The notes below the pieces were generated by a model. It was given only the letters and a program-made list of their open reading frames with translations, ran no database searches and was not told where the DNA came from. A DNA stretch of 52,893 bases from a virus (lineage: Duplodnaviria; Caudoviricetes): positions 1 to 52,893 of IMG/VR virus record IMGVR_UViG_3300032328_000405; one strand, 5' to 3'. The position numbers were made by a program, and so were the translations under genes. The stretch's first letter is position 1, and every line of letters begins with the position of its first letter. Below are positions 36,285-52,803 of the stretch, piece after piece.

Positions 36285-37033
36285 TCATCAGCAACACGAA
36301 CACCGGCGGGCACTGGTATACCAGGGACGGCGATCCTCAATATACCCAAATGGGACTAAACGGGAAGGAGCGCCCGACGACTCTGCGGGATGCAAGAAAA
36401 AAGGATTTGGTCCCTAGCGTCACTACAATCCTGGGAGTCGTAGCCAAGCCAGCGTTAAACCTTTGGATTCAGAAGCAGGTAATTCTGTCGGCCCTGAAGC
36501 TTCCGAAGGAGCCCGATGAGGCGGTTGATGATTATGTATCTAGGATTATCAAGGATGGGCAGGAGACGTCGCGACAGGCGGCCGCAGAGGGCACTAGAAT
36601 CCACTCAGCGATCGACCACTTCTACGACGAGAAGGAGCCCGTTGAGGCATACGCAGAGCACGTTCAGGGGACCACCTCGACGATCAAGCTTGCTTATGGT
36701 GAGAAGAAATGGATTGCAGAGCGGGCGTTCGCTCATGAGATTGGCTTTGGCGGACGGGTTGACCTTCACGCTGACGGGATTGTCCTTGACGTTAAGACCA
36801 AAGAATTTGAGTCAGAGTCAGAGATCACTAACTTCGACGAGAACCTGATGCAGCTCGCCGCCTACCGGGTTGGCCTGGGTATGCCTCAAGCAGTCTGCGC
36901 TAACGTGTTTGTATCCCGGACTCGGCCAGGACTTGTTAGCATTCAGGAGTGGACGCCGGTTGAACTGGACCGCGGATGGGAGATGTTCTGTCACCTGCTG
37001 CAGTTCTGGCAGATTCGGAACAATTACCTATAG
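36281..37033 (+). CDS. PD-(D/E)XK exonuclease
   Basis: 'PSVTTIL', 'GTRIH', 'E..GRVDL..LDVKT', 'QLAAY'. Confidence 0.88.
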   Translation: MIISNTNTGGHWYTRDGDPQYTQMGLNGKERPTTLRDARKKDLVPSVTTILGVVAKPALNLWIQKQVILSALKLPKEPDEAVDDYVSRIIKDGQETSRQAAAEGTRIHSAIDHFYDEKEPVEAYAEHVQGTTSTIKLAYGEKKWIAERAFAHEIGFGGRVDLHADGIVLDVKTKEFESESEITNFDENLMQLAAYRVGLGMPQAVCANVFVSRTRPGLVSIQEWTPVELDRGWEMFCHLLQFWQIRNNYL

Positions 37034-38463
37034 CGTTCTCGAGCCTGCTTAACGGCCTCGAGCCCAAAAGCTGCAGGAACAGCGATAGGCGCAAGTGGAG
37101 GATACATTGATGCCCCGGTGGCCGCCAATTGAGATGCGGCTATAAGGGCGTCGAGATATTCCTGCCTCTGCAGCGCTTCGTCTATTTCTGCGACGTTCAT
37201 GCCCATTGAAGCACTTGCGGCGCCGTACCCAACTACCGGGAAACGTTTGAATGCTGTTTCTGCAACTCGAGCACCAATCTGGCCTAAAGGGGTTTCTCTA
37301 ACTGACGTCAAAGCCGCTCGAGCACGATTGATTGGACGTTCAGCCTCTAGCCTGGCTGCCCTGGCCCTATTAGTGTCTTCTTCAATTTGAATGAGGCGCT
37401 GCTGATTTGCCTGCTCCTCTACCAGTCTCTGCTGCATCGCCTGCTCTCTTGCAGCGGCGGCCCTTTCGTCGGTTTGTTTACTCAAGCGTTCCCAGATTGC
37501 ATTAGGATCATCGGGGCTAAGTTTTGGGTAAAGCTTGTTGATCCGTTGCGACACTTTAGAGCCGCCCTGCACCTTGCCACGTTGGTACATTGACGCAGAC
37601 TCAGGAACCGATCTAGAGCCCGGCGTCTCAACACCTCGCCAGTTCCTCGACCACTTCTCTCCGCTAGTTCCTCCGGTAGCAGGGGCCTCAGGAAGGGCAC
37701 CGGATGGAAGTCGTAGCTGAGGCTCTCGCCTTTCGAGAGTAGATCTCCGCTGTGATTCCATTTGAGCGTACTGAGCCCGAGCCCTTTCACGAGCCATCTC
37801 CTCGCGCATAGCACGAGTATCCGCCCTGTTCAATCTGGACTCTGCAAAGCCATACCCGGCACCTAAAACGGCCCCGGTAGCCGCAGCCATCTCCTTGTTC
37901 TTCTGAGCCTCTACAGCAGGATCGGCCGCCTCCTGTGTATAGATAGTGGCCTCTGGGGTCGGCTCATTAGGCTCTGGCTCAACTTCAACCGGCTGCTTAG
38001 GCTCGTTTGGTGTCGGCTCCCCCTCTCCGAACCCACCATAGCCATTTATCTTGGCGATGTAATTCTGAGTCTCTTCCGGCAGGTCACCCTTTCCAGTCTT
38101 AAAGAAGGAATGATTCGGGCCGGCGTTATACATTCCCGCGGCCATCATCGAGTCACCATTACTGCGAGACAGGAAGTCCTTTAGAACCGAGACCCCGGCC
38201 TCAATGTTCTTCTCCGGGTCTGTCAGGTCTTGACGACTGAACCCGTACTCTTTCCCTGTCCCAGGCATGACCTGCATGATCCCAACGGCGCCTTTAGGGC
38301 TCAGGATGACCTTACCATTCTGGTCGTACTGACGGAACCCGTTCTCTGCAAAGGCCAACGAAAGCGCGAGGTTTACAGGGACCCCCTGAGCCTGGGCCTG
38401 TTCCCGGATCATCTCTACTACGCGCTTCTGACCTTCGTCTAAGTTATCTAAGTAGTTTGCCAT
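37024..38463 (-). CDS. Internal virion protein with N-terminal lytic transglycosylase (SLT) domain
   Basis: 'AENGF', 'SPKGAVGIMQVMPGT', 'NIEAG', 'YNAGP', 'ETQNY'. Confidence 0.88.
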   Translation of the reverse strand: MANYLDNLDEGQKRVVEMIREQAQAQGVPVNLALSLAFAENGFRQYDQNGKVILSPKGAVGIMQVMPGTGKEYGFSRQDLTDPEKNIEAGVSVLKDFLSRSNGDSMMAAGMYNAGPNHSFFKTGKGDLPEETQNYIAKINGYGGFGEGEPTPNEPKQPVEVEPEPNEPTPEATIYTQEAADPAVEAQKNKEMAAATGAVLGAGYGFAESRLNRADTRAMREEMARERARAQYAQMESQRRSTLERREPQLRLPSGALPEAPATGGTSGEKWSRNWRGVETPGSRSVPESASMYQRGKVQGGSKVSQRINKLYPKLSPDDPNAIWERLSKQTDERAAAAREQAMQQRLVEEQANQQRLIQIEEDTNRARAARLEAERPINRARAALTSVRETPLGQIGARVAETAFKRFPVVGYGAASASMGMNVAEIDEALQRQEYLDALIAASQLAATGASMYPPLAPIAVPAAFGLEAVKQARERYR

Positions 38464-40325
38464 TACTGAACCGCCTTGTTTGCATAGTCCTTCAGCTTGC
38501 TGCGAACGGTCGTCAACACCGCCTCATCCTTAGGCTTTTCGGTTGGCATAGGTCCGAGTCCGATCGACTTCTTAATCTTCTTCAAATCCTCTGAGTAGTC
38601 GTTCTCAATCGTGTCGTAGGCTTTGCTGCGGTTGAACTGCTCGATGGTCCCTTCAGGATTCTTGTCGCGCCAGGACTGGAACGTCTTGATATAACGCTCG
38701 TTCATGTTCGCCTGGGCGTAGGCCAGCTGAGACTTAAACAGCAAAGCGTTCGGTGGATCTTTGTACACTAGGCCGTTGATGTCCTGGACGATCGCCCGCT
38801 CCATGTTCGTAACGGTACCCTGCCCCTTAAGGTAAGTTTGAGAGTTTAAAAGTTCCGCTCTGCGCAGGAGGCTGCCGGCTACGTTCAATTGATCGATAAC
38901 CTCTTTCGGGGCGTCTACCTGAACGATCGCCTTATCGAAGTTTGTAATCGCAACCTGGTACCCGCCTACGTTCAGGCCGCCGCTGACAAGCTCTCCGATT
39001 GCAGCCCTGACGCCAGGCTTCGCAGTCGGCCCCAGAACCTTCTGAACGTCCTTCTTGTTGAAGATGTCAATAAGCGTTTTGGTGTCGTTCTTCTGTTCTC
39101 TGAGCGCAGGGATCTTAGAAACAAGGTCCTCTTGGCGCTTCTGCTCGGCTTTTTGTTTGTCAATGTTGACTTGTTTTTTGGCCTCTATATCAGCCAGCTC
39201 TTGTGCTTTCTGTACGTCTCGCTCTCCTTGCGAAAGAACCTTAGGCGCTCCAGGCTTGCCGGTTGCGTTGGTAATGTTTGCAAATATTTCACCAACTTTT
39301 TGAGAGTTTTTATTCAAGACTGCGTTGTTAAATTCACTTGCGGTCGCAGGATCGGTGTCGTAAGTTTTTCCGTTGAAAACAATACTATTCCCGCCCCTAG
39401 CAAGGACCAGCCTTGGCGTACCAGACGAGATGTCAACGATGCCATCCTCAGTCTTAACCAGGTTGCCTTGTTTGGTTTTGTTGACTGCGTCGTCAAGCTG
39501 CCCTTGGTCAACCTTCAGCTTTGCCTCTTTAACGGCAATGTCTCGAGCATCAATCTGTCGCTTCTGAACAGCGGCGTCAAACTTTTGCCCTTTTTCAATC
39601 GCGTCTTGAATTGAAACACCCTGACGGAATGCATATTCGGCCATATTCCGACCTTCTTCCGTCATCCCCAAAATAAGCTGCTCTTGAGCAGGCGAGACTT
39701 TCGCTTGGGGAGGGGCTGAGAGTGGCGCAGGAGATGGTGCTTGAGGGGGCGCAGCAAGAGGAGGAGGCTGGTAAGGTTTAAAGACTAGCTCTGGCGTTGG
39801 GGTGCCAGTGGTCTTGATTGGTTGCATTGGAGGTAATTCGCCCTGTGTGGCCACTTCCAATGGACGCTGAACAATCCCTGGAGCAGGCGCCGCACCGATC
39901 GCAGACGTTAAGGCGCCACCCTCTGCAGGCGGTGGTACCGGTAGAGCGCCGGCGGGTGGCTGTCCTGGTAAAGCAGCGGCAGGCGGCTGGTTACCACGGA
40001 GAAGTGCAAGGCCCTCTGCTTGGTTTTTACGCTGCTGCTCAATGGTAAGCAGCTCTTTGTTGATGTCGAATCGAGCTTTGTTCTCTTCGATGTTCCGCTT
40101 GAATTCTTCTTCTTGCGACTTGCCGACAGCCCCAGCAACATTACCTAATGCCTCAAATGCGCTACCTGTTTTTGTTGGAGTCAAAAAAGCTTGGGCAGCG
40201 GCCAGATAGGAAGGATCAAAGAAGCGATTCTTCCTTTGGTCCAGAGATTCAACAAGCTTTTGATACGCCTCCTCTAGGCGAGCCTGGTAATCTGGATCGG
40301 TAAGCTGGGTGCCTTTATTAGCCAT
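38463..40325 (-). CDS. Putative DNA ejection protein
   Basis: Helical, Pro-rich linker, 'GQGTVTNMER' pattern; located in the ejection cluster. Confidence 0.65.
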   Translation of the reverse strand: MANKGTQLTDPDYQARLEEAYQKLVESLDQRKNRFFDPSYLAAAQAFLTPTKTGSAFEALGNVAGAVGKSQEEEFKRNIEENKARFDINKELLTIEQQRKNQAEGLALLRGNQPPAAALPGQPPAGALPVPPPAEGGALTSAIGAAPAPGIVQRPLEVATQGELPPMQPIKTTGTPTPELVFKPYQPPPLAAPPQAPSPAPLSAPPQAKVSPAQEQLILGMTEEGRNMAEYAFRQGVSIQDAIEKGQKFDAAVQKRQIDARDIAVKEAKLKVDQGQLDDAVNKTKQGNLVKTEDGIVDISSGTPRLVLARGGNSIVFNGKTYDTDPATASEFNNAVLNKNSQKVGEIFANITNATGKPGAPKVLSQGERDVQKAQELADIEAKKQVNIDKQKAEQKRQEDLVSKIPALREQKNDTKTLIDIFNKKDVQKVLGPTAKPGVRAAIGELVSGGLNVGGYQVAITNFDKAIVQVDAPKEVIDQLNVAGSLLRRAELLNSQTYLKGQGTVTNMERAIVQDINGLVYKDPPNALLFKSQLAYAQANMNERYIKTFQSWRDKNPEGTIEQFNRSKAYDTIENDYSEDLKKIKKSIGLGPMPTEKPKDEAVLTTVRSKLKDYANKAVQ

Positions 40326-40336
40326 AAACAACTCTC

Positions 40337-41314
40337 TTAAAGAGCGCCTTCTTCGTTTTCGTAATTAGCGGTATAGAACGGGCTTCTTGTATCACTTGAA
40401 TTGAAATATGGCAAAAGTTTATCAACGCCAACATTCCATAAACTTCCAAGAGATGATAGTTGCGATGAAGAAAGTCCAAATGCATCAGTGTTACCCCCTC
40501 CAATAATTGAAGCGAGGCCACCAATTTTCTGAAGGTCACTCAATCCAAACTGCCCTTGAGTGCCAGGCTTGACTGTGGTCTGAGTTTTTTCCGTTGGGAC
40601 TTGATAGCCACGCAGCAATCCAGCAACGTTACTCGCCGTAGCAAGAGGCGCCTCAAGCTTTTGTTGCTCATATTTCTGCTTTTCTGCGCCGGCTTTTCTT
40701 AATGCCTCAGATTCGTTCAATCCTAAGGTCTGGGCCTGGGTAGCAAGATCACTCTGAAGCTTGCCTGCCTGCGTTTGGTTCTGCTGCTCTTTCAAAAGGG
40801 CTTGTACGGCGTTTTCATAGCCGCTTGAGAGTAGCTTGCCTTGTTCCCCGGCTAGGTTTGCAGATACGTCCGTCATCGCCTGACCAAGGGCGCCAGCGTA
40901 ACGTGAAGACCCAAGAGCGCCGGAGCCGACAAAGCCACCAGTAATCTGCGGCAGGATATTGCGCTGGAGGGCGTTCCCAGACTGCCTGGCAAGCTCTTGA
41001 ACAACGTTAGCTGTGTAGGGGTTCATCAGCTGCTGCAGGCGCTCTGGAGTGATTCCAGCGGCTGCTGCGTTTGCTGTTGTAGTGGCGCTCGCAAGTCCAG
41101 GCTGATAAGCACCGGCCGCACCCGCTACCTTTTCATAACCCTGCGTTTGCATCGGGTCATAGCCTGCGACCAGCTGATCAGCAGTCTTCTTTAAATAGTC
41201 TTGCCCAGTAGTGGATAGACCAGTAACCGTCTTGTTGTACCAGTCCGGCGCAGTCTCTTTGGCTGTCTGCGTCTCAGTTACGTTTGGCAGCGCACCACCT
41301 TGAAAAAATGACAT
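40337..41314 (-). CDS. Putative DNA ejection (pilot) protein
   Basis: Q/A/G-rich; 'MNPY..V', 'GALGSSR'; G-rich hydrophobic C-terminus. Confidence 0.7.
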   Translation of the reverse strand: MSFFQGGALPNVTETQTAKETAPDWYNKTVTGLSTTGQDYLKKTADQLVAGYDPMQTQGYEKVAGAAGAYQPGLASATTTANAAAAGITPERLQQLMNPYTANVVQELARQSGNALQRNILPQITGGFVGSGALGSSRYAGALGQAMTDVSANLAGEQGKLLSSGYENAVQALLKEQQNQTQAGKLQSDLATQAQTLGLNESEALRKAGAEKQKYEQQKLEAPLATASNVAGLLRGYQVPTEKTQTTVKPGTQGQFGLSDLQKIGGLASIIGGGNTDAFGLSSSQLSSLGSLWNVGVDKLLPYFNSSDTRSPFYTANYENEEGAL

Positions 41315-44300
41315 TACTTTCTCCGCTTCATATATTCGAGTGGTGACAGGGCTTTAGGCGGCAAATCCTTCGGGGCTGCCTTCCTAGCTCGAGCGCGGAT
41401 GTTGTGCATCATTTTATACAACTGCTCGCTCCCGGCCTTAGTGGAACCATTCCCTAGCGCAGCCACAACGTCAGCAGGGAAAACAAACTCCCCGTCTGCA
41501 AGCATGGCCGGAATATCGTCGGATTGGCCATCGCCAGGGCCAGAAACGGCATCTCCGCGACGGTAATCTGTTCTCATTTTACCCGATTTATAGAGCTTTT
41601 TAAACGGGTCTGCTAATCCGCCCTTTGCAAAGGCCATCTCTTCAACTTCAGGCTCTTCGGTCCCTAGAATCTCGTCAATCGAAGGGGCCTCGCCGTATTC
41701 GTAATATTGCTGTTTGGGCATTGGAGCCTCCGGTTGGGTAACTTCTGGTGCAGTGTTCTGCTCGACTTTAGCAAAAAATTGATCAAGTATGCCCCGGTAT
41801 CCCGGTTTTCCGCCAATAACCATCGGGCTAATTTCTAAAAATGGCGTTGCTGCCGCGACACCAGCTGCAATTTTCGGCATAGAAAACTGAAAGCCAGCTC
41901 TTCGTCGAGGAATACTTATCGTCAGGCTTGGTTTAGTAGACGTAACCGAAGCAGTGGTAGTAATCGAAGCAGTAGGCGTAACAGAAACAGTAGGCGTAAC
42001 CGAAACAGTAGGCGTAACCGAAACAGTTGTTGTAATTGAGGCAGTGGGGGTAATTGTTGAGGTAATCGTTGAGGTAAGGGTCGGTGTAATGGTTACGCTA
42101 GAGGTCAGTGTAGAAGTTGGCGTAGGGACCGTCGGCAATACATCAACGGAAACATCTGTGCTGGTTTTAACGGAAACGTCTGTGCTGGTTGTGACCGAAA
42201 CTTCTGGACTAGTAGTAACCGAAACTTCTGGGCTAGTAGTAACCGAAACTTCTGGGCTAGTAGTAACCGAAACCTTTTGACTGGTGGTAACTGAAACTTC
42301 TGGACTAGTGGTAACTGAAACTTCCGGCCTGGTAGTAACAGTAACTTCTGGACTAGTAGTAACTGAAACTTCTGGGCTAGTGGTAGCCGTAACTTCTGGG
42401 GTAACCGAAACTTCTTGACTAGTGGTAACTGAAACTTCTGGACTGGTAGTAGCAGTAACTTCTGGGGTCACTGAAACTTCTGGAGTAACCGTGACTTCTG
42501 GGCTAGTGGTAACAGTAACTTCCGGGGTAACCGTAACTTCTGGGCTAGTGGTAACTGAAACTTGTTTACTAGTTGTGACCGTAACTTCTGGGTTAACCGT
42601 AACTTCTTTGCTAGTTGTAACCGTAATTTCTGGACTAGTGGTAACTGAAACTTGTTTGCTAGTTGTAACAGTAACTTTTGTCTCTGGAATGACACTAACT
42701 TTATCTGCAGAAGCTTTTTCTATAGAAGCCTTGGTTTTAGATACTTTGTCAGCAGAAACTTTTTCTACAGAGGCTCTGTAGGTGGAAGCTTTATCTATTG
42801 AAGCTTTTTTCACAGAAAGCTTTACAGACTCAGAAACCGATGCCTTGCTAGCAGAAACTTTTTCTACAGATTCCCTGTAAACAGACGCCCTGTCGATTGA
42901 AGCCTTTTCTGCGGAAAGCTTTACAGACCGGGAAATAGACGCCTTATCAGCGGAGGCCTTACTTACAGATGCTTTGTAAATAGAATTTTTTTCTGCTGAC
43001 GCTTTTTCTGTTGAGGCCTTTTCTAACGAAACCTTTTCTGCAGAAACACTTCTTAGTGATGCCTTTTCTTTTTGTGTTTTATCAACCATTTCTTTGTCAA
43101 AAGATGACTTATCCCTGGATGCCTTTTCAACAGAAAGTTTATCAGCAGATTTTTTTTCTGCGGACAATTTTGCTATAGAAGCTTTATCTTCAGATGCCTT
43201 TGCCAAAGAGTTGCTAACGGAAGCCTTTGCCACGGAAGCTTTTTCGGCGGAAACTTTATCTATAGAAGCTTTATCTTCAGATGCCTTTATCAAAGAAGCA
43301 CTGACAGAGGCTTTTGCCATAGAAGTCTTTTCTGCAGACGCTTTGCTTGTAGAAGCTTTTTCTTCAGAGACTTTCGCCAAAGAAGCGCTAACAGAAGCTT
43401 TGGCCACAGAGGCTTTTTCTGTAGAAACTTTATTAACAGAGGCCTTTTCTATGGAGGCCTTGTCTATAGAGGCTTTTGTTATAGAAGCTTTTTCTGTAGA
43501 CGCCTTGTCTATAGAAGCTTTTGTTATAGAAGCCTTTTCTGTAGACGCCTTGGAAACAGATAAGTCAACAGAAGCTTTGTCCACAGAGGCTTTTTCTGTA
43601 GAAACTTTATCAACAGAGGCCTTTTCTGTGGAAGCCTTGCTAGTGGAAGCCTCCGCTAAAGCCTTAAATTCAACCGCAGCTTGTTTTAAAACATCTTCCT
43701 CTTTCCCCGATCCTGCATATTTGGCGGCCACCTCTTCGGGCACCACAAAGTTGTTGAACTGCTTTGCAATGTTCTGCAACTCATCTCGAGATACATACGT
43801 TGGATCTATTGCAGCCCTAGCATTTTCTAGCGCTCGCTCTTGGGTTTCGCCCGCCCCAACTAAAGACTTGTAAACTTGTTCAGTTGGATTTCCTGCTCCT
43901 TCCGCCTGATACATCTCATCAACTTCTTCAGGCGTAATGGCAAATTTTGAATTGGCACTGTTTGCAATGTAAGCAATCAGACTTGGATCGGTAACTCCAC
44001 TTGCCTTTGCCGCATCCGAAATAGAAGAAATTGCTTTGGCTGAACTGACAGCGTCATTAGGGTCAACTTTCTGACCTTGAGCGACAGCTATTGCAACATC
44101 AGGGTTTGTGAAAATAGCAAGGTTTCCCTTCAACCCAGCCACAGAAGCTATTGTGCCTCCGGTAAGACCCCCGACTAAACCAGCAAAAGCTGCCTGTGCT
44201 AAATTTTTTCCTGGGTCAACTTCAAGACCGTTCGTTGCTTTATAAATGTCTGCAACCAAAGCGGGAACTGCGTCTTCAACTGCCTCTTCCCTTGCCTCCC

Positions 44301-47300
44301 CAGTCGTTGTTTTTCTGACTGTAGATACATATCTGTTTAAAGCGTCTTGAGCGTTTTGTCCAGCGGGCGTATCTCCGTTTTTAACCAAAATCTTTGATAA
44401 TAAATTTGAAGAATCCTTGTTGCCTTTTGCTTGCAAGGCTGTAGAGGTAACAAGTGTTGCCGCAGCAACTGACATTCCTGCAGTCATGGCCATTTCTGCC
44501 GCTTCAGCCGGGCTTTTCCCGCTTTTTATTGCCGCAGAATAGACATCTTTATAAGTAGTATCAAATCCCCCGACTGCGCCAGCAAAGGTTTCGGAGCCCT
44601 CTGCAACCACTACCCCAGCCCGACGGCCAATAAAAGAAGCAAGCTCCTTTGTTGCACCGTATGACCTAGCGGCAGAGGTTGCGTACTTCGCAGCTGCAAT
44701 ACCAAGCCCGCCGGTAAGCGCCTCACTTACAACTTCTTGTCCAACAAAGTGGAATAAAATAGCTTTCGGATTTTCAAAAAGATTTTCTGCAATTGCGGCC
44801 GCGGTGCCGGAAAACCCCTTTGCCCCAGCGACGTCTCCGGTTATTTTATCTAAAGCTGCCTGTGATTCCGGAGTCCTTACCTTATCACTAAGTTTTGATA
44901 GAGAGTCTGATAACTTTCCAGCGGCTGTGTTTTTAGCATCAACCCCCAAAGCCGAAGAAATTAAAGCAAAAGTCTTCGCGGCATCAGCTCCGCCGCTTAA
45001 AAGTACTGATACGGCATCCCTGACAACGCTAGGAGTCTTATCTTTTAAACTGTCAACAATTCCGGCTGCAGATTTAAAAATTTCAGATTCTTGTTTATCC
45101 AGAGAGGCGGGCCGAAGGTTTGCTGGGATACTTTTTATAGTTGAAAGATAAGCAGTTGGGTCAATTTTTTTTATTTCGTCAGGGTCGGATATTCCGTACT
45201 TCTGGTCCCGAACTCGAGCGCTCTGAATTTGAACCCATACATAACTGCCGTCCGGGTTGCGGAGCATTGTGGCAGTTCTCTCCTTGTAAATCTGATCCGG
45301 CGTAGCAAACTTTGCCCCAGTTGGAAGTTCAAAAACACTAAGAGGAGGTGGGTCCCAGGAGCCATAGACCTTTGATAGAGCAGGCGCCTTGTCCTTGACA
45401 ATGGTTGTCTTTGCTAACGCTTCAGGCGGCGTGTTAACCGTATAAACCGCGCCATCTTCTCCGGTCACCTGGAATGTCTTTTGTCCTTTTTTTCCAGCTT
45501 CATACGCTGCGGTAGCCCACTCCCTAGCTGCAGATGGCTTGACCGTAAAACTAGAAGGGGTCTGGTCGCCGTAGTCGCTATAGGCATCAGCAAGGTCATT
45601 AACGACGTCCTGGTTAAGCATCGAAGCAGGCACATTTGCAGCCTTCGATAAACCATCAGCAATCCCCTGATTATCAGACAGGTCCTTTAGCTTTTGCTCC
45701 GACTTGTTGATCGGCTGCGACATTCCAGAAGATAGCCAATGGTCGTAACTGTCCTCTGGTGGATTTCCATGCAAGTCTGAATATTGTTTTGCATCAAATT
45801 CTGGAGCTAAAGACTTTACAAAAGAAATTTTAGTTTGGTCGTTTAGCTTGTCGTTGTACTCTTTAAGGTTTGACCCCGCCGCAGCAAGGTCAGATTTGAG
45901 TGCGTTAAATTGTTCTACACTCTTTGGGATCGAAGCCTTTAAAGTGTCAAGTTCTCTATTTAGTTCGCCAGTTTCGTCTTTGAACTTGTTCCATCTGTTT
46001 TGTAGCGAGGAAGATGCAATTGAATATCTTTCGTTCGCCTTGTTAAGGGTGTCGATTTGATTATTTATTTCTCCAAGACCGGCCCCAGACTCAATCAAGC
46101 TATAGTAGTCACTGGTAGCCTTTTCTTGCGCTTTTTGAGCATCATTAAACTCAGTCATTGCTGGGTCTAGTTGGCTCTTGATTGTCGAAAGCCTTTCCTG
46201 AAGTACAGACTGCCTGTTCTGACTTGCGGTAATAGTATCTACAAGACCATCTAAATCCGCCGCAGACTTTTCAACAAAAGAAGACAGATCCCCAGATGTT
46301 TTTATTTTTTGTTGAGCGCCTGTGCTTAGATTTTTTTTAAGACTCTCAACTCCGGACCTTGCGAGTTGATTGAAGGAATCCTGCCCGGCCTTAACCATTG
46401 TTTTTATTAGGGCCTGATCAATCGGTTTATTTTGAATTAAAGCCGTTGCAGTATTTGAAATCCCGGAAACCAACAACCTTTCTTGCTGTGGCGTTAACCC
46501 GAGCCCCTTGACAGAATCCGTAATAATTCCCGAGGCTGTAATCGCAGACTGAATTACAGCGGCGGTTACTGGTTGCTTGCTTAGTTTTGCCTCTACCGCA
46601 TCCGCAATTATTTGTTGAGATCCGGGAGACAACTTGCCAAAATCAGAAACCTGACCCAGAACGTAAGGGATGGCTGCGCCAACACCTGCCTCTGCAAAAG
46701 TCTTTAAAACATCTCCAGCGTCTCCGGTCCTGACAATTGACTGGATTGTGTTTTTTGTGCCACTGACAACCGTCTGTTTGATTACATTTGCAACATCCCC
46801 TTTGCCAAAGGTAGAATCAATAACGCCGCCAATCTCCTTGCCTACCAAGTTTCCTAAATAATCGCCGGCGAATCCCTTTGCAAAAGACTCAAAAATGTCA
46901 CCAACGTCTCCAATTTTGTTGGCGGCGGCCTGAATTGCTGTAGAGATAACGGCAGTTCCAAATGCACCAGCCGCGGCTCCACTAAGGCCAGCAGCGGCCC
47001 CTATCAGTCCCCCAACACCAGTAAGTGAAACCCCAAGGAAAAGGATTGGGGCAATTTTGTTCCAATCGCTTGAATCAGACCACTGCGGAGACGGGGCAAA
47101 TAGAGTTGTTCCGTTGGCCTGCTTTACTGGCTGGAGGCTGTAGTCGGTCCACCCCTCCCCCTCTCCAGTCGAACCAAACTTGGCAGGAATCTCCTTCCCG
47201 TTTAGTTTGTTTATTGTTACTTCATAAGCCGGCTTTGTAGGAATCAGTTTTGATGTATATACCGGCTCATATTTGTATTTGGTAACGTAACCTGTGCCGT

Positions 47301-47550
47301 AAGGAGCCTTTTCGCTATACGCTACTTTAACCGTCTTCCCCGTATCTACTTTTTCATAGTGTTGAGGGACTGCCGGAATGGTTTTTGTTCCAATGTCGTT
47401 AAGGCTAGTGACTCCGTATTGGTTATACAGGATGTCAGACATTATCTGAACGTGTCGATCTGCCTGCAAAGCCTTATTAGAGTACGCGCCATTAGCCGCA
47501 TTATTTATTAAAAATAATTCCCCTTTTAGCTTTGTGAGCGCATCATCCAT
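41314..47550 (-). CDS. Giant (2078 aa) internal virion protein with mucin-like Ser/Thr repeats
   Basis: Hydrophobic G/A segment, coiled coil, KAS and VSVTTSPE repeat arrays, C-terminal 'GPGDGQSDDIPAMLADGEFV' domain. Confidence 0.75.
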   Translation of the reverse strand: MDDALTKLKGELFLINNAANGAYSNKALQADRHVQIMSDILYNQYGVTSLNDIGTKTIPAVPQHYEKVDTGKTVKVAYSEKAPYGTGYVTKYKYEPVYTSKLIPTKPAYEVTINKLNGKEIPAKFGSTGEGEGWTDYSLQPVKQANGTTLFAPSPQWSDSSDWNKIAPILFLGVSLTGVGGLIGAAAGLSGAAAGAFGTAVISTAIQAAANKIGDVGDIFESFAKGFAGDYLGNLVGKEIGGVIDSTFGKGDVANVIKQTVVSGTKNTIQSIVRTGDAGDVLKTFAEAGVGAAIPYVLGQVSDFGKLSPGSQQIIADAVEAKLSKQPVTAAVIQSAITASGIITDSVKGLGLTPQQERLLVSGISNTATALIQNKPIDQALIKTMVKAGQDSFNQLARSGVESLKKNLSTGAQQKIKTSGDLSSFVEKSAADLDGLVDTITASQNRQSVLQERLSTIKSQLDPAMTEFNDAQKAQEKATSDYYSLIESGAGLGEINNQIDTLNKANERYSIASSSLQNRWNKFKDETGELNRELDTLKASIPKSVEQFNALKSDLAAAGSNLKEYNDKLNDQTKISFVKSLAPEFDAKQYSDLHGNPPEDSYDHWLSSGMSQPINKSEQKLKDLSDNQGIADGLSKAANVPASMLNQDVVNDLADAYSDYGDQTPSSFTVKPSAAREWATAAYEAGKKGQKTFQVTGEDGAVYTVNTPPEALAKTTIVKDKAPALSKVYGSWDPPPLSVFELPTGAKFATPDQIYKERTATMLRNPDGSYVWVQIQSARVRDQKYGISDPDEIKKIDPTAYLSTIKSIPANLRPASLDKQESEIFKSAAGIVDSLKDKTPSVVRDAVSVLLSGGADAAKTFALISSALGVDAKNTAAGKLSDSLSKLSDKVRTPESQAALDKITGDVAGAKGFSGTAAAIAENLFENPKAILFHFVGQEVVSEALTGGLGIAAAKYATSAARSYGATKELASFIGRRAGVVVAEGSETFAGAVGGFDTTYKDVYSAAIKSGKSPAEAAEMAMTAGMSVAAATLVTSTALQAKGNKDSSNLLSKILVKNGDTPAGQNAQDALNRYVSTVRKTTTGEAREEAVEDAVPALVADIYKATNGLEVDPGKNLAQAAFAGLVGGLTGGTIASVAGLKGNLAIFTNPDVAIAVAQGQKVDPNDAVSSAKAISSISDAAKASGVTDPSLIAYIANSANSKFAITPEEVDEMYQAEGAGNPTEQVYKSLVGAGETQERALENARAAIDPTYVSRDELQNIAKQFNNFVVPEEVAAKYAGSGKEEDVLKQAAVEFKALAEASTSKASTEKASVDKVSTEKASVDKASVDLSVSKASTEKASITKASIDKASTEKASITKASIDKASIEKASVNKVSTEKASVAKASVSASLAKVSEEKASTSKASAEKTSMAKASVSASLIKASEDKASIDKVSAEKASVAKASVSNSLAKASEDKASIAKLSAEKKSADKLSVEKASRDKSSFDKEMVDKTQKEKASLRSVSAEKVSLEKASTEKASAEKNSIYKASVSKASADKASISRSVKLSAEKASIDRASVYRESVEKVSASKASVSESVKLSVKKASIDKASTYRASVEKVSADKVSKTKASIEKASADKVSVIPETKVTVTTSKQVSVTTSPEITVTTSKEVTVNPEVTVTTSKQVSVTTSPEVTVTPEVTVTTSPEVTVTPEVSVTPEVTATTSPEVSVTTSQEVSVTPEVTATTSPEVSVTTSPEVTVTTRPEVSVTTSPEVSVTTSQKVSVTTSPEVSVTTSPEVSVTTSPEVSVTTSTDVSVKTSTDVSVDVLPTVPTPTSTLTSSVTITPTLTSTITSTITPTASITTTVSVTPTVSVTPTVSVTPTASITTTASVTSTKPSLTISIPRRRAGFQFSMPKIAAGVAAATPFLEISPMVIGGKPGYRGILDQFFAKVEQNTAPEVTQPEAPMPKQQYYEYGEAPSIDEILGTEEPEVEEMAFAKGGLADPFKKLYKSGKMRTDYRRGDAVSGPGDGQSDDIPAMLADGEFVFPADVVAALGNGSTKAGSEQLYKMMHNIRARARKAAPKDLPPKALSPLEYMKRRK
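41930..42690 (-). repeat. Thr/Ser/Val/Pro mucin-like repeats (VSVTTSPE 24-bp and TVSVTP 18-bp units)
   Basis: Directly visible tandem units, e.g. gtaaccgaaacttctgggctagta. Confidence 0.95.
42697..43656 (-). repeat. Pentapeptide [ED]KAS[TVIA] array (15-bp units, roughly 60)
   Basis: Directly visible in translation and DNA (agaagccttttctgt variants). Confidence 0.95.
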
Positions 47551-47553
47551 ATA

Positions 47554-48507
47554 TCACCATGTCCCTGTTCGAGCTTTTTCGTGAATTATTTTGTTTTTAT
47601 AGTCAATCCCGGAAAACTCTGCAAATTGCTCTAGAGTTCTAACGTTACCCAAGCCAAACCGCCCAACATCTTCGCTGCGAAACAACATTGCAGAAAGGCG
47701 CATTTTGGCTCTCACATCAAGATTCCCCCATTTTAACTTACGATCTTCGTCTTCATCTTCCGACCAATGTTTTTTTCTGTAGCTGTCTCCGTCACCCTTT
47801 TCAAATAAGTGATAAATCGGCATCGCAGGGGCATGATACACATCCCATCCATGAGTAAAAGCCCTGACAGCTAAAGAGTGCTCCTCTCCATTAAAGTAAA
47901 GGTAGGGGTCATATGGGACGTCGTACACAAACTTCCCTGGCGCAAAAATACACCCAGCGCCAATATAAAAACCTCTCACTGGAATCAAAGAGTCAACCCC
48001 AACTGGATGTACAGGTATCACCACACCGTTTTCTTCAAAGGACGCATCTTTTGTACAAACGTGCCCGATCACCTTCTCATCATCAATAACCGGCGTTGAC
48101 TTCCCGTTCTTAAACGTAAACCCTCGAGGATAGCTAGAGATCAGGCACTTCTTGTTGCTCATGCGTAGAATTTTGCTCATCTCAACAAAATACTCGTCCC
48201 AGTCATCCCCAAAAATGGTGTGAGAGTCGCACTGCAGCAGCCAGTCCTCATCGTTGTACAGCGACATCTGAATGGACCGAGCCCAGCAGGCGCCCCTTGA
48301 GGCCGTCGGGTCTATGGCTATGTAGGTGATGTCTGCGCCGAAGAAGGCATTCTGGTTTATGCGGTGCTCCAGGACCTCCTGTTCAACAATCCCAAACCTA
48401 AGCCTCTCTGGGTACTTGGCATGGTCTAGGGCGCTTTTGATTGTGTGTGCTAGTAACGGGTCGCGATATGATGAGATACCAACAAAAATAGTGTCAGACA
48501 TTTCCAT
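47554..48507 (-). CDS. GT60-type glycosyltransferase (Skp1 Gnt1/OGNT-like polypeptide GlcNAc transferase)
   Basis: 'IFVGISSYRDP', 'RGACWAR', 'QCDSHTIF..WD', 'ISSYP', 'AGCIF', 'VPYDP..F.GEE..R.FTHGWD.Y'. Confidence 0.85.
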   Translation of the reverse strand: MEMSDTIFVGISSYRDPLLAHTIKSALDHAKYPERLRFGIVEQEVLEHRINQNAFFGADITYIAIDPTASRGACWARSIQMSLYNDEDWLLQCDSHTIFGDDWDEYFVEMSKILRMSNKKCLISSYPRGFTFKNGKSTPVIDDEKVIGHVCTKDASFEENGVVIPVHPVGVDSLIPVRGFYIGAGCIFAPGKFVYDVPYDPYLYFNGEEHSLAVRAFTHGWDVYHAPAMPIYHLFEKGDGDSYRKKHWSEDEDEDRKLKWGNLDVRAKMRLSAMLFRSEDVGRFGLGNVRTLEQFAEFSGIDYKNKIIHEKARTGTW

Positions 48508-48736
48508 TCATCGTGTTAATAAGGGCAGAGGCCCAGTCCGACCAGTCTCCGTAATGATCAGGATCGGGGATGGCTTCGTTCGCAAAGACTCCGATAGCCT
48601 TGAGGCCTCGACCCCACTGCCGCCAATCAGTCTTCTGGTTTGGTATCTCAAGCTGATTACTGGCAAATTGCTCCACCATCAAGTCAGCCCAAGAGACAAA
48701 AGTATGATAGCGCGGGTCATATAAAACAGCCATCAA
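48494..48736 (-). CDS. Small tail-module protein
   Basis: 80 aa; 'DPR..W..W..W..PDP..W.DWA'. Confidence 0.7.
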   Translation of the reverse strand: MMAVLYDPRYHTFVSWADLMVEQFASNQLEIPNQKTDWRQWGRGLKAIGVFANEAIPDPDHYGDWSDWASALINTMNGNV

Positions 48737-50946
48737 TACCCCCGAACGTCGCCGACATCTCCACTTAGCAACACCTTCCCGAGCTGGTAATTGCCGTTCA
48801 CCACGTTGCTAACAAAACGCAACCTCATCTCCCGCCTCTGCTCCTTCATATCAATTTTCCCCGTATCAGGCCCAAATACATAGGGCCCAGACGTTGCATC
48901 AGCAGACTGTGCGTAAGGTCTTCCCGTGATTACCAGGCTCATGTCCCCGGTCTGTACAAAATCAGGCTCTACGCGCTCTAGACGCAGCCATTTGTTGTCC
49001 CCCGCTACCCCAGCCTGCCCAGGGATAGGAGCCGGTGCTGCAGGGCCTCCTGACACCCACCCCAGGTCGTTTGTCTCAAAGTAGGACTCAATTGCCGAGG
49101 CGTCCTGGCCAGTTACATCGTTAACGCCGTACTCATGCTGATAAATGCGAATCCGGTTCGATGGAGAACTGAACGTTAGCGTCTGGGTACCTGATCCAGT
49201 TGCCGCAATTGACATCTGAATGCTCTGAACATAAACCTCACTAACAGGAACAGAGAATCCAGCTCCACCAGGAATAGTCGCCGTCAGGACTGCCCCAATA
49301 ACGTACCCAGAGCCCCTGTTGACGATCGTCACCGAGGTAACAGAACCTCCGCCACCTACGACTATGTTTGCCGTCGCACCGAAGCCCCCGCCACCAGATA
49401 ATGCAGTCGCATTGTACGTCCCTGGCGTATAGCTAGAGCCACCCGTCAACGCACCGAGCGTCTTTAGGCTATTTGAAACAACCGAGACAACGGTAGTATT
49501 GGCCGCGACGTTGGTGCCGGTAATGACCTGAAGCGGATCTGCTAGGGGGCTTGCAAAGTCTGCGTTTAACCAGACGCTCCCGCTCACTGTTGTGAAGCTA
49601 TTCACAAATACCTGTGTGCTTGGGATTGTGGTTGACTGCGCCATAATCGGGTACGGGAAAACCATCGAGAAGTACCCAGCACTCCTGCGGGCCCCTAAAG
49701 CCTGGCCAGCGTCATACCATACCCCAGAGCGGACATTAAAAATCACCGCATCGTTACATTCAGTTGACGTGCCTCGAGGATAAAACCACCAGATTTCACC
49801 GAACCTTGGCACCTTTGTTGCCCAGACCTTCTGCCTCTGCGAATAGTTAAGGTTGTCAAAGAAGTAGTTCTGGTTAAAGTCGTTAGGGATCTCCTTGACC
49901 GTTCCGCCGTAGAGCAGGAATCTGTCAACGCCACACCAATAATAAATCCCGTCGTACTCAATCGCAGACTGGCTAGACATGATAGAAGTCTGCCCTGAGA
50001 CCGTCTCATAACGCCAAAACTGAGGTGGGGTACCAGAACCGCCAATATAAGAGACGCGGATTAGACTATCCAGACTCCAGAACAGGCCAGACGGGGAATT
50101 GCTACCGCCTCGAACGGCCAGCCCCTGCACAATCTTCCCGGTGGCGACGTTAACCTCGTTTGCATCCAATCCAACCCAATTTAAAGGGTTACCGGCCGAG
50201 CAGTTTTTAAGAAATCCGTTGTTGCCGTAGACGAAAACGTAAGGATGCAGCGAGACCACGCCACCAGAGACGTCTACGTTGTTGTCAAACGTGGCGGTAA
50301 TGGTTCCAGACGGGACAACATTGCTAACGGTCACCGATGTAGTGTTAACACCTACGACAACCGTATTAGCCGGGACATTGGTGCCGGTCATTGTCTGGCC
50401 CACCCCAACCAACGGGTTCGCTGCTGCCAGGGTTACTACGTTCGTATTGTTGCCAGTAATAGAGGCAGTAAAAACGCCGATCTTGGACATCGTGGTGCCG
50501 TTAATGTCGCCAATCAGCACAGGCGTATTAACCGAACCATCAACCGCGGCAAGGTTCTGACCAGGGTGAGCAACGATTGAGCCTACGCCGCTCCCGCCTA
50601 CGTCATAGAACCCATCAAACTGCCAGAGGTTGTTGGCGCTAACGGTAAAGTTAGACAGCGTAAAATTCTGAATACCCTGGCCGTTTCCGTTGTTGTCGAT
50701 CACCAGCTCCTGCAGGCCACCGCTGTAGCCCGAGAAAATCTGGTTGATACCGTTCGTGGCGTTGGACCACATCCCTCGAGAGGGCCCAGTAAGCTGATCA
50801 GAGAGCATTCGGTATCCGCCGATCTTACGGGGTCTGCCGCGCTGAAACCTTACCCAACGTCCATCAGTGTAGAAGTTTTTGTCAAATAGCGTCCCGTCGC
50901 GCTGTACTCCCGGCTGAGTATCTAGAGAAAAAACCTTTTTAGTCAT
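48733..50946 (-). CDS. Tail nozzle/stabilisation protein (podovirus tail tubular B-like)
   Basis: 737 aa; 'PGVQRDGT..WVRF.RGRPRKIGG', propeller-like core, 'EIWWFYP', 'RVEPDF'. Confidence 0.7.
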   Translation of the reverse strand: MTKKVFSLDTQPGVQRDGTLFDKNFYTDGRWVRFQRGRPRKIGGYRMLSDQLTGPSRGMWSNATNGINQIFSGYSGGLQELVIDNNGNGQGIQNFTLSNFTVSANNLWQFDGFYDVGGSGVGSIVAHPGQNLAAVDGSVNTPVLIGDINGTTMSKIGVFTASITGNNTNVVTLAAANPLVGVGQTMTGTNVPANTVVVGVNTTSVTVSNVVPSGTITATFDNNVDVSGGVVSLHPYVFVYGNNGFLKNCSAGNPLNWVGLDANEVNVATGKIVQGLAVRGGSNSPSGLFWSLDSLIRVSYIGGSGTPPQFWRYETVSGQTSIMSSQSAIEYDGIYYWCGVDRFLLYGGTVKEIPNDFNQNYFFDNLNYSQRQKVWATKVPRFGEIWWFYPRGTSTECNDAVIFNVRSGVWYDAGQALGARRSAGYFSMVFPYPIMAQSTTIPSTQVFVNSFTTVSGSVWLNADFASPLADPLQVITGTNVAANTTVVSVVSNSLKTLGALTGGSSYTPGTYNATALSGGGGFGATANIVVGGGGSVTSVTIVNRGSGYVIGAVLTATIPGGAGFSVPVSEVYVQSIQMSIAATGSGTQTLTFSSPSNRIRIYQHEYGVNDVTGQDASAIESYFETNDLGWVSGGPAAPAPIPGQAGVAGDNKWLRLERVEPDFVQTGDMSLVITGRPYAQSADATSGPYVFGPDTGKIDMKEQRREMRLRFVSNVVNGNYQLGKVLLSGDVGDVRGY

Positions 50947-50947
50947 C

Positions 50948-52174
50948 TCAGAATACCCCGCCAGATACCCCGCCAGTGAATGTGCCGGAGCCGCTAATTG
51001 TTAGCCCAGTTGCAGCAAGAGCAAGCCGCTTAATCCCAAGTATGGAAAAGCCAATCTCCCCAGTACCGATGTAGTACATTCCGGTTGCGGCCTCCGACAA
51101 GAAGGACAAAGAAGGCGAACCAACCGAGCCATTCACAAGCGCAAGCGACGACCCCCCAACGTTAATCGTGGAGGCGTTGAAAAGGTTCACTGAGTCGCAG
51201 AGCAAAATAATCTGCTGGCTGCCAGGAACCGAAACAGTTGCAGCGCCAGCGACTCCAGTCGTGAAGGTGATTGAGCCACTTGACTGATTCGTAACGTAAT
51301 AAACCTGGATTGTCTGCGGCAGCACCACCGTCACAGGGTTAACGATCGTCCCGGTGTATTTCTGAATGACGTTAGCGGCCTCGGTGGCGGTCAGGGTATA
51401 CGACCCCTCAGAAACCGCCTTCGTCAACTGCGTAAAGTTAAACTGAGCGCTCCTGCCCAGTCCAACAGTAAAAAAAGCGGCCCCAGAGCAGCAAATCATG
51501 CACGAATCACTGGGAGCCAAAGAAATTGAATTTGAGCCGTCAATTAACTGGCCAGAACTCGGTGCAATAGCAAGGTTGCCGCTGCCACCGTTACGCACCA
51601 AGATAAACCAGTCATTACCAAGCGTGACGGCCGAGGTAAGCGTCAGGGTACCCGAGCCGCCCGTCCAGACAAAAGTATCCGCCCTGTCTGCCGAGACCGC
51701 CGTATAAGCATTAGAGAACGTGTTGACCTGATGCGCAGTATTAAGCGTGGACGAGATCGCCTTGAGACCGTACCCAGCGAGCGTGGCGGCATCGGCATTA
51801 GAAGACCCCACACCAAAGGCAATAGAGCCCCAGGTCCCGGCAGCGGTCGTGTTAGTGGTGATGTATATGTAACGCGCCTGCCCAGCGGCGATCGTAGCCA
51901 CCGCCCCGCCCGCATTGTCTAGTACATTAAAGGAGTTCGCGCCAGTGTTGCGGATTAGGCTGTCTTGACCAACAGAGGCCTGGTTCGCAGCGGGGAGGGT
52001 GATCGCTAGCCCCGCAGTGGTCGCAGAAACGTCCATGATGCGGGCAATTACATCCCCCGCGGCGTTACCACTAACCGGCCATGAAAGCGTCGTGTTAGCC
52101 GTTAGAGAGATGCTGCGGTAGGAGACGTCGGTAGGCTGAATGACGTCGCCGGTGAACGGGCTAATAAAACTCAT
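50948..52174 (-). CDS. Tail structural protein
   Basis: 408 aa, three similar beta modules ('ITLPAA..IRN.G'). Confidence 0.65.
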   Translation of the reverse strand: MSFISPFTGDVIQPTDVSYRSISLTANTTLSWPVSGNAAGDVIARIMDVSATTAGLAITLPAANQASVGQDSLIRNTGANSFNVLDNAGGAVATIAAGQARYIYITTNTTAAGTWGSIAFGVGSSNADAATLAGYGLKAISSTLNTAHQVNTFSNAYTAVSADRADTFVWTGGSGTLTLTSAVTLGNDWFILVRNGGSGNLAIAPSSGQLIDGSNSISLAPSDSCMICCSGAAFFTVGLGRSAQFNFTQLTKAVSEGSYTLTATEAANVIQKYTGTIVNPVTVVLPQTIQVYYVTNQSSGSITFTTGVAGAATVSVPGSQQIILLCDSVNLFNASTINVGGSSLALVNGSVGSPSLSFLSEAATGMYYIGTGEIGFSILGIKRLALAATGLTISGSGTFTGGVSGGVF

Positions 52175-52803
52175 TATGAATCCCTCACGACTGTTTGACG
52201 GTCACCGATCCTGGCAACATCCTCTGTTTTGAGTGTGGCAATTACCCGATCGTACTGCGCCTGCCACATCGGCATCCGTTCGTCATTCTTCAAAAACGGC
52301 ATCGCCTGCAGCAAACTGCCATACAGCATCGCCTGAGGAGCGTACTGAGTAAACCAGTTCGTTTGATTCGTGACGTCCAGGGGCTGCACCCGCTCGTAAT
52401 ACAGAATCTCGTAGTTATAAGCCAAATCAGGTGTCGGCGCCACTAGCCAATGAGTGTAGTCGTAGTCACAATAATATATGGGCGTATCCGTCTGAGTGGC
52501 GTTAGGCCAGTAATTCCTCAAATACTCGTACTTACGCAAGAACACCGGCTGACGCTGGTTGTTATCAATAAGGTTGACGGAGACAGTCTTACGCCACCTT
52601 GCCGGCTTGACAATAACGGGCTGGCCGACGTTCATCGTGCTAGTCACAACCGTCAAGTTGCCCAGGAATTGGATTTCCGTAGAAATAACCTGCTCCGCCA
52701 GCATGATAAAGGTCGGGATCTTCTCAAGCGTGGCCGTGTCCGTGCGCTCCAAATAAGAGGAGATGTCGGTCACCAAACTCGCATACGTCATCTCAACGGC
52801 CAT
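52174..52803 (-). CDS. Head-tail adaptor protein
   Basis: 'MTYASL..I..YLER..IPTFI.LAE', 'APTPD..Y', 'LYGSL..A.PFLKND'. Confidence 0.75.
   Translation of the reverse strand: MAVEMTYASLVTDISSYLERTDTATLEKIPTFIMLAEQVISTEIQFLGNLTVVTSTMNVGQPVIVKPARWRKTVSVNLIDNNQRQPVFLRKYEYLRNYWPNATQTDTPIYYCDYDYTHWLVAPTPDLAYNYEILYYERVQPLDVTNQTNWFTQYAPQAMLYGSLLQAMPFLKNDERMPMWQAQYDRVIATLKTEDVARIGDRQTVVRDS

Follow-up and report, generated by a model that had tools for sequence, protein, structure and literature searches.

Gene organization at the locus

The stretch of viral DNA analysed here (IMG/VR record IMGVR_UViG_3300032328_000405, 52,893 bp; hereafter the window) is a complete viral record with direct terminal repeats and belongs to a podophage. 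On its minus strand, the gene for a 317-amino-acid (aa) glycosyltransferase (GT; 47554–48507) is followed by the gene for a giant protein of 2078 aa (41314–47550) in which two long repeat zones lie one after the other, and the present work concerns this pair of genes and the possibility that the enzyme O-glycosylates the repeats. Only 3 nt (47551–47553) separate the stop codon of the GT gene from the ATG of the giant gene; no terminator-like site was present in this gap, and promoter- and terminator-like sites were not in excess of those in shuffled sequences. Both genes are part of an operon that encodes, in this order, an SU10-type adaptor, proteins of 408, 737 and 80 aa, the GT, the giant protein, proteins of 325 and 622 aa, and a protein with an SLT lytic transglycosylase domain.

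An earlier note, written from the letters of the sequence, had placed the GT gene 3 nt before a 2078-aa gene inside a tail/ejection operon, and had described about 320 aa of [ED]KAS[TVI] pentapeptides followed by VSVTTSPE/TPT-type repeats in the giant protein and the motifs SYRD, DSH, PYDP and GEE in the enzyme. This observation was confirmed in every detail that was checked. Open reading frame (ORF) calls gave the same two genes with the same spacing, Pfam and PHROG matches among the neighbours agreed with a tail/ejection operon, the repeat zones measured 320 and ∼260 aa, and all four motifs were found in the translation.

The 317-aa protein is predicted to be a soluble GT-A glycosyltransferase

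The GT matched the Pfam family PF11397, ‘Glycosyltransferase (GlcNAc)’, with an E-value of 9.2e-56 and 190.2 bits against a cut-off of 21, and a scan of the whole genome gave the same assignment; its PHROG was phrog_24687, and NCBIfam held no family for it. PF11397 is the Pfam family built on CAZy family GT60. The translation carries the stretches SSYRD, CDSH, VPYDP and NGEE, and alignment showed D16, D94, H96, P198-Y-D-P201 and G207-E-E209 to be invariant across 30 homologues, D94-S-H96 being the DxH metal-binding motif. A word-indexed search with the GT yielded 426 homologues at E ≤1e-5 among 954 candidates; PF11397 was found in all 120 that were listed of these 426, and the few named ones are GlcNAc-transferase family proteins.

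AlphaFold2 modelled the GT with a predicted local distance difference test score (pLDDT) of 92 and a predicted template modelling score (pTM) of 0.91. When this model was compared with the PDB using Foldseek, ranks 1–48 were all occupied by chains of polypeptide GalNAc-transferases (ppGalNAc-Ts, family GT27), with a best E-value of 3.5e-11 and template modelling scores over the query (TMq) of 0.55–0.64, in agreement with the GT60-like enzyme of GT-A fold that had been predicted in the earlier note. Against the sequences of solved chains, the best phmmer E-value was 0.3 and a profile search of PDB sequences remained without a match (E <0.1); in the weak phmmer alignment (E 0.3), GEE and YHLF of the GT were aligned with the matching stretch of Toxoplasma gondii GalNAc-T3. 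As there was no sequence-level match to solved chains, the likeness to GT27 is one of fold and not of membership. A ricin-type lectin domain was absent from the GT, for which Pfam reported PF11397 only and which ends at 317 aa, and a hydrophobic N-terminal stretch of the kind of a signal peptide or membrane anchor was not visible by eye, no predictor having been run. Family match, motifs and structural model identify the 317-aa protein as a soluble GT-A glycosyltransferase of PF11397, and among solved structures its modelled fold comes closest to the catalytic part of the mucin-type ppGalNAc-Ts.

A GT of this phage might also glycosylate hypermodified bases of its DNA as a protection against restriction. 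Phage GT-A enzymes glycosylating DNA do exist according to a preprint (bioRxiv 10.1101/2023.12.21.572611), and the homologue in Xanthomonas phage XacN1 is located near genes for a DNA polymerase and a carbamoyltransferase. However, the DNA-modifying enzymes of that preprint are marked by R...DDD...EDY/F active-site motifs, are encoded beside 5mYOX/C5-methyltransferase or ThyS-type genes and are similar to JGT and TarP, whereas the GT of the window lacks this motif set, has DxH and resembles ppGalNAc-Ts; the main text of the preprint, like that of PMC13326640, names neither PF11397 nor GT60. Moreover, neither neighbours of this kind nor a hydroxymethylase, TET or C5-methyltransferase were found among the window ORFs scanned (19 ORFs with Pfam and 29 with PHROGs, small ORFs excluded), and the sole methyltransferase found in these scans is of the FkbM type. 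Modification of DNA, which the earlier note had itself listed as an outcome contrary to its proposal, is thus very improbable.

The giant protein carries two different repeat zones

The giant protein had no Pfam family above the cut-off and no PHROG, and a Protein Atlas search with residues 1–1290 returned viral hypothetical proteins only (scores ≤0.86). The first repeat zone (residues 1300–1619; 42694–43653, minus strand; hereafter the KAS zone) keeps a 5-residue K-A-S-x-x register with 29 exact KAS[TVI] units and 48 looser matches. It contains 25–32% Ser plus Thr (S+T) and no Pro, a composition that is not mucin-like. The second zone (residues 1620–1880; 41911–42693, minus strand; hereafter the PTS zone, for Pro/Thr/Ser) is built of PEV[ST]VTTS and TPT-type Pro/Thr/Ser/Val repeats, has a mucin-like composition with 38–49% S+T and 8–11% Pro, and is the proposed acceptor. 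Tandem Repeats Finder reported arrays at 41935–42677 and 42709–43639 with periods of 15–126 nt. AlphaFold2 modelling of residues 1280–1900 gave no usable fold (mean pLDDT 39.7). The fractional G+C content falls to 0.43–0.47 across the giant gene. The repeats are followed by a conserved C-terminal part of 190 aa (41317–41886, minus strand), which bears the motif GDGQSDDIPAMLADGEFV and is 65–98% identical in the close clade described below.

For comparison between genomes, arrays were delimited by a PTS metric applied in 40-aa windows (S+T ≥30%, Pro ≥8%, Gly ≤8%, entropy ≤2.6 bits), by which the PTS zone of the window measures 237 aa. Crude S+T content was tried as a discriminator as well and did not tell GT-bearing from GT-less genomes, since high values are also reached by fibres of beta-helix and collagen-like type; the PTS metric was adopted for this reason.

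The close clade comprises 16 IMG/VR contigs whose GTs are 71–97% identical (genomes and loci are cited below by our G and L numbers). A long ORF was located downstream of the GT in 15 of the 16 loci. It is the next gene in 13 of them, whereas in L017 and L018 two inserted ORFs of 373 and 164 aa come first; the remaining contig ends at the GT. All six complete giant ORFs of the clade, two of which are near-identical, contained low-complexity Ser/Thr arrays of 310–918 aa, and their centre was hypervariable where the flanks were 69–98% identical. In L006, whose GT is 90% identical to that of the window, the KAS zone is exchanged for Ala/Lys repeats free of Ser and Thr, while L011 has SQSVANSV repeats in the same place and L005, L007 and L008 have yet other units; TKPEITVT and VSPDTS are further units seen in the variable centre within this clade. 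Nevertheless, the variable zone ended in a Thr/Ser/Pro/Val array in every copy that was read far enough, and the PTS zone is thus the constant feature beside a variable centre. As Ala/Lys repeats can replace it in L006, the KAS zone is probably an exchangeable spacer rather than the main acceptor, which weakens the claim in the earlier note that the [ED]KAS[TVI] pentapeptides are a glycosylated substrate.

Co-occurrence of the GT with Pro/Thr/Ser arrays

In a reverse approach, viral records were chosen by their repeats. A scan with a (TPTV)3.5 DNA pattern gave at least 120 stretches. Of these, 118 loci were taken forward, two more being on a contig already included; all but three of the 118 could be examined, and they represent 111 distinct records. 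Among the matches listed, PF11397 was found in 28 of these 111 records chosen by the pattern alone, and in none of 112 records with a collagen-like (Gly-Pro-X)6 pattern, for which eight further loci were not available (Fisher p = 4.6e-10). It was likewise absent from all 31 records with (APAV)3.5, the Thr-to-Ala twin of the first pattern (31 of 45 loci examined), so that the combined controls amount to 0/143. Eighteen GT sequences taken from the first 19 positives formed 14 groups at 90% identity, seven at 70% and four at 50%.

A second lineage was represented by contigs of 10–217 kb with a CheckV completeness of mostly 3–50%, whose GTs of 414–423 aa are ∼30–34% identical to that of the window. 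In all 12 loci, an ORF with a PTS array was located at most four ORFs from the GT, and in five of them it was directly adjacent; one such neighbour is an ORF of 2848 aa that is incomplete at the start of the locus and whose arrays add up to 812 aa. The GT gene is followed in this lineage by genes for an FkbM methyltransferase, for fusions of TylF methyltransferase with HtrL_YibB, for GT25 enzymes and for part of a DegT aminotransferase, a cluster which by its predicted gene content is a glycan-building island. This island (L504:8245–17462 and L512:8601–17256) adjoins PTS-array proteins, one of which has RCC1 propeller repeats.

Among distant relatives of the window, G001 and G002 (GT 46% and 41% identical, respectively) carry the GT gene after the portal gene, and the array gene is ∼20 kb and 36 kb away, respectively. 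The latter encodes a protein of 1249 and 1221 aa, respectively, with 440 and 306 aa of (TPTV)n, and lies just upstream of a separate gene for a protein with the C-terminal motif; G044 and G061 showed the same layout. A GT gene between portal and head genes was seen in L032 (G001), L053 (G002), G044 and G061, and also in L021, L022, L028, L038, L039 and L042, and the giant protein is split in those distant relatives into an array protein of ∼1220–1250 aa and a C-terminal-motif protein of 264–368 aa. BLAST at first seemed to relate the giant protein to the array proteins of G001 and G002, but the match vanished upon composition correction, and these proteins are therefore equivalent by position only.

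Searches with the N-terminal 850 aa and the C-terminal 190 aa of the giant protein recovered the same clade only, and for this reason the capsid protein was used to find further relatives. PF11397 was absent from all 20 capsid relatives, 14 of which are ≥90% complete. In the 12 GT-less relatives that were fetched whole, the longest PTS array was 65 aa, and spacers of other kinds were present; G016, for instance, has helical repeats of 58 aa, and G010 has a zone composed of Arg, Glu, Gln and Ala. A PTS array of ≥100 aa was detected in three of five GT-selected genomes that are ≥90% complete (G000, G002, G026, G027 and G031) as compared with 0/12 of the GT-less genomes (Fisher p = 0.015).

Reverse test, second lineage, distant relatives and GT-less relatives all lend support to a putative enzyme-substrate link, and with moderate confidence we favour the PTS array of the giant protein as the target that the enzyme glycosylates. 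Several observations weigh against it. The control patterns behind the 0/143 were not habitat-matched to the TPTV records, and the TPTV positives are phylogenetically clustered, so that the number of independent events is well below 28. No GT was found in 83 of the 111 TPTV records, most of which are fragments, the complete ones including G075 and G195. Among the TPTV positives, G059 and G078 had no array in the 18–19 kb fetched around the GT. The complete genome G026 has the GT and no PTS array by the metric, with ∼100 aa of T/E-rich sequence only. The GT homologue of phage XacN1 is situated near replication genes, and its target may therefore differ.

Further points of this kind, which concern the position of the gene and the nature of the repeats, would also suit a different explanation, namely that the GT acts on another virion protein such as capsid or fibres, or, late in infection, on a host envelope protein or polysaccharide, that the repeats are unmodified flexible spacers, and that the GT gene landed in a slot tolerant of insertions. 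The slot upstream of the giant gene varies, being empty in G007 and holding ORFs of 235 and 155 aa in G016, and the gene order differs again in L017 and L018; as other genes occupy this slot in relatives, the adjacency of GT and giant genes in the clade could go back to a single insertion event. In G001, G002 and G044 the portal gene precedes the GT gene, and in G026 and G027, the latter having a PTS array of 117 aa, the GT gene is found away from the structural genes. PF11397 is common in viral contigs, with at least 591 stretches confirmed among 600 pattern matches, most of which had no array at a distance of up to 10 kb, and a PTS array of ≥60 aa was found within 10 kb at only five of 74 distant GT loci, a proportion that is yet above the 0/160 of control loci. 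One and the same place is filled by spacers as unlike as Ala/Lys and 58-aa helical repeats, and the giant protein of the complete, GT-less genome G007 (capsid protein 91% identical) has a 232-aa T/G/N/A-rich array of the GGTTTP/NAATN type, with no Pfam glycosyltransferase in any of the nine ORFs of ≥150 aa specific to G007. However, another target of the GT would leave unexplained why PF11397 accompanies TPTV repeats in 28/111 records versus 0/143 controls, and why it repeatedly adjoins PTS-array genes in an unrelated lineage. The nearest folds are, furthermore, those of peptide O-glycosyltransferases and not of polysaccharide or lipid-linked GTs, and the N-terminus, inspected by eye with no predictor run, showed no hydrophobic stretch. 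We consider this explanation less likely than modification of the PTS array, though it is the most serious of the competing ones.

The interpretation put forward in the earlier note is thus partly supported by these genomic comparisons. The co-occurrence of GT and Ser/Thr arrays was borne out by the TPTV records and by the 12 loci of the second lineage, but it is broken by G026 and G007 in either direction, and with at least 591 viral stretches that mostly lack a nearby array, GT and giant protein do not form a dedicated enzyme-substrate pair in the strict sense.

Distribution of GT homologues in phages and bacteria

When 50,697 phage records were searched with the GT by tblastn, only four Xanthomonas and Stenotrophomonas jumbo phages were found, with 27–30% identity. 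The homologue of Xanthomonas phage XacN1 (L020, 222135–223508) has 457 aa, is encoded beside a carbamoyltransferase gene, and has genes for DNA polymerase and RNase H nearby. Some large phages possess two PF11397 domains, either in one protein of 896 aa or in tandem GT genes (G078:C1:22242–24563; G197, G198). The capsid protein of the window is 77% identical to those of the Caulobacter phages RW, RLK, KcrB and GB2A and shares ∼40% identity with its counterparts in podophages of Pelagibacter (HTVC023P), Roseobacter (CRP-901) and Planktothrix; these cultured relatives from Caulobacter, Pelagibacter, Roseobacter and Planktothrix were without the GT by tblastn, and near-identical DNA was not found among cultured phages.

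The 80 closest bacterial homologues of the GT (L513–L592), 37–46% identical, came mostly from Burkholderiales (Roseateles, Ramlibacter, Rubrivivax, Pelomonas and Massilia), and some from Thiomicrospira and Francisella-like metagenome-assembled genomes. A PTS array within 10 kb was found at five of these 80 loci, ORF calling being unreliable on high-GC bacterial DNA. The Burkholderiales homologues may hint at the host range of the phage or at the source of the gene.

The giant protein in the context of the structural operon

In order from the upstream end, and all on the minus strand, the operon starts with the SU10-type adaptor gene (52174–52803; PF24175, E 3.4e-24), followed by the gene for a 408-aa protein that was assigned to the structural module from its ORF and by comparison with relatives (50948–52174). 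The next gene encodes a 737-aa virion structural protein in a nozzle-like position (48733–50946; phrog_3287), with homologues in all 14 relatives compared. Between this gene and the GT gene lies an 80-aa ORF (48494–48736), and in relatives an ORF of comparable size (82–98 aa) takes this position. Downstream of the giant gene are located genes for a 325-aa protein with a match to a ‘DNA ejection protein’ PHROG (40337–41314; phrog_4287, E 8.3e-8), a 622-aa protein without Pfam or PHROG family that was placed in the ejection module by comparison with relatives (38463–40331), and a 479-aa protein whose N-terminus carries an SLT lytic transglycosylase domain (37024–38463; PF01464, E 9.9e-20) that also matched PHROGs for an ‘internal virion protein with endolysin domain’. 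The giant gene thus lies between the adaptor and nozzle genes and the SLT-domain gene, as is characteristic of podovirus internal/ejection modules, and this synteny is kept in the relatives.

The C-terminal motif (GDGQSDDIPAMLADGEFV...) recurred in 18 of the 20 capsid relatives, within ORFs of 292–2472 aa, and had matches in cultured phages (Arthrobacter siphophages, Caulobacter phage GB2A and phage DSL-LC04), with 31–54% identity over 24–85% of the query, to genes that bear a tape measure label by annotation only. Close to the N-terminus of the giant protein, a Gly/Ala-rich hydrophobic stretch (∼residues 165–215; 46906–47058, minus strand) was read from the translation; it is conserved in the close clade and is possibly a membrane-inserting segment. 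From gene order and motif we infer that the giant protein belongs to an internal/ejection, tape-measure-like module. The T7 proteins gp14–16 are podovirus internal/ejection proteins comparable to this module in gene order. The giant protein resembles them and tape measure proteins in the position of its gene, the SLT-domain neighbour, the hydrophobic segment and a C-terminal motif that is also present in annotated tape measure genes, and differs by the lack of detectable homology to characterized ejection proteins and by its hypervariable low-complexity centre.

In another reading, the PTS array is indeed modified by the GT, and the giant protein would be a fibre, whisker or decoration on the outside of the virion whose sugar coat serves adhesion, shielding or colloidal stability. 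No homology of the giant protein to a characterized ejection protein was detected with Pfam, PHROG or Protein Atlas, and the array proteins of the second lineage with RCC1 propellers resemble multi-domain surface proteins. However, the succession of adaptor, nozzle-like protein, giant protein, ‘ejection’ PHROG and SLT protein mirrors the internal-protein modules of podoviruses such as that of T7 gp14–16, annotated tape measure genes share the C-terminal motif, and a Gly/Ala hydrophobic segment is present. An external location of the giant protein therefore appears improbable to us.

Outside the operon, a 140-aa head-module protein (17654–18076, minus strand) had a match to a GroES co-chaperonin PHROG (phrog_3188, E 1.3e-8); its gene adjoins the portal gene and is kept in most relatives. 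An FkbM-family methyltransferase (PF05050; TIGR01444) is encoded on the plus strand at 33818–34621, and this gene was absent from all 14 relatives compared. FkbM-type genes were also noted 1.3 kb from the GT60-like gene in G039, at ∼5 kb or less in L083, L087 and L092, and two ORFs after the GT60-like gene in G057 (L504:10314–10970). A tblastn search with FkbM for co-occurrence gave few matches only. The FkbM protein of the window could be an accessory to the GT that O-methylates the sugar, although the link between the two is weak.

A proposed model for glycosylation of the giant protein

According to the model that we propose, the soluble GT would use a cytoplasmic UDP-sugar late in infection, and this donor is most likely a UDP-HexNAc, with UDP-GlcNAc as the first candidate in view of the family name and of its abundance in bacteria. 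The enzyme would O-glycosylate Thr and Ser in the PTS array (∼residues 1620–1880) of the giant protein, which would be translated right after the GT, and this would happen before the giant protein is built into the virion; PEVSVTTSPEVSVTTS and TPTVTPTV are candidate acceptor peptides for the putative activity. The giant protein itself would be an internal, tape-measure-like protein with a hydrophobic Gly/Ala segment, a long variable spacer and a conserved C-terminal motif, and would be freed during genome delivery, when the sugar coat may keep the spacer extended, stiff and shielded from envelope proteases. The KAS pentapeptide zone would act as a separate, interchangeable spacer. PF11397 enzymes may serve PTS arrays in other phages as well, sometimes together with glycan-extending and methylating enzymes.

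Among known systems, the GT60 members Dictyostelium Skp1 Gnt1 and Trypanosoma cruzi OGNT are polypeptide alpha-GlcNAc-transferases. The phage GT resembles them in its strong PF11397 match, the DxH motif and a catalytic domain without lectin domain, and it shares with cytoplasmic Gnt1 the lack of an evident signal sequence. It differs in being phage-encoded, in acting presumably in the bacterial cytoplasm, and in its proposed acceptor, a viral PTS tandem array. GT27 enzymes, whose solved folds are the nearest, share DxH, a Gly-Glu motif at an equivalent place and Thr/Ser/Pro-rich acceptors, whereas the phage GT has no sequence-level membership, ricin-type lectin domain or membrane anchor and only 317 aa as opposed to ∼500–560 aa.

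Streptococcal serine-rich repeat proteins are glycosylated by transferases of their own, GtfA and GtfB, which belong to the GT-B class. The phage system recalls them in that a giant repeat protein is encoded beside a putative cytoplasmic glycosylating enzyme, with glycan-extending enzymes in some phage loci, but its enzyme is of GT-A type and PF11397, and its carrier is a virion-module protein and not a bacterial adhesin; domains of a GtfA/GtfB pair or of accessory SecA2/Y2 were not detected among the operon neighbours scanned with Pfam and PHROG. The virion glycosylation of mycobacteriophages reported by Freeman and colleagues in 2023 (Cell Host Microbe) is said to target capsid and tail-tube subunits of actinobacteriophages. 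It would have in common with the present system that phage-encoded GTs modify the phage’s own structural proteins, as is proposed here, and would differ from it by the GT60-type enzyme, by the tandem PTS array of an ejection-module protein, and by the phages concerned, which are podophages related to Caulobacter and Pelagibacter phages as well as large phages. Mycobacteriophage virion glycosylation is also cited from Freeman et al. (2023) in PMC12582341. In the collection of papers searched for phage GT60/PF11397 enzymes, phage O-glycosylation and mucin-like phage proteins, no description of the present arrangement was found. Given the different enzyme family, the tandem-array acceptor, the virion module and the phage groups, it would be a new form of virion self-glycosylation by phages.

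Biological significance

We tentatively suggest that GT60/GT27-like enzymes which initiate glycosylation on Pro/Thr/Ser arrays may form a widespread, unrecognized phage glycosylation system that extends from podophages of ∼50 kb to phages of 200–300 kb and is accompanied in some by extending, amino-sugar and O-methylating enzymes. In the phage of the window, such a system would coat the spacer of an ejected, tape-measure-like protein, and prokaryotic viruses and their hosts might be a reservoir, perhaps the source, of the eukaryotic mucin-type and Skp1 enzymes. We hold this wider proposal with less confidence than the modification of the PTS array itself.

Self-encoded glycosylation of phage proteins has been documented for few phages, on the capsids and tail tubes of mycobacteriophages. 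If the proposal is true, many phages from the environment would rely on a different enzyme family for mucin-type O-glycosylation of viral repeat arrays, and the hypervariable low-complexity zones of giant phage proteins would gain a function as glycosylated spacers. Bacterial glyco-engineering would, in addition, have at its disposal a peptide O-glycosyltransferase that is small, soluble and served by simple repeats as acceptors, and the finding would bear on the origin of the eukaryotic GT60 and GT27 enzymes.

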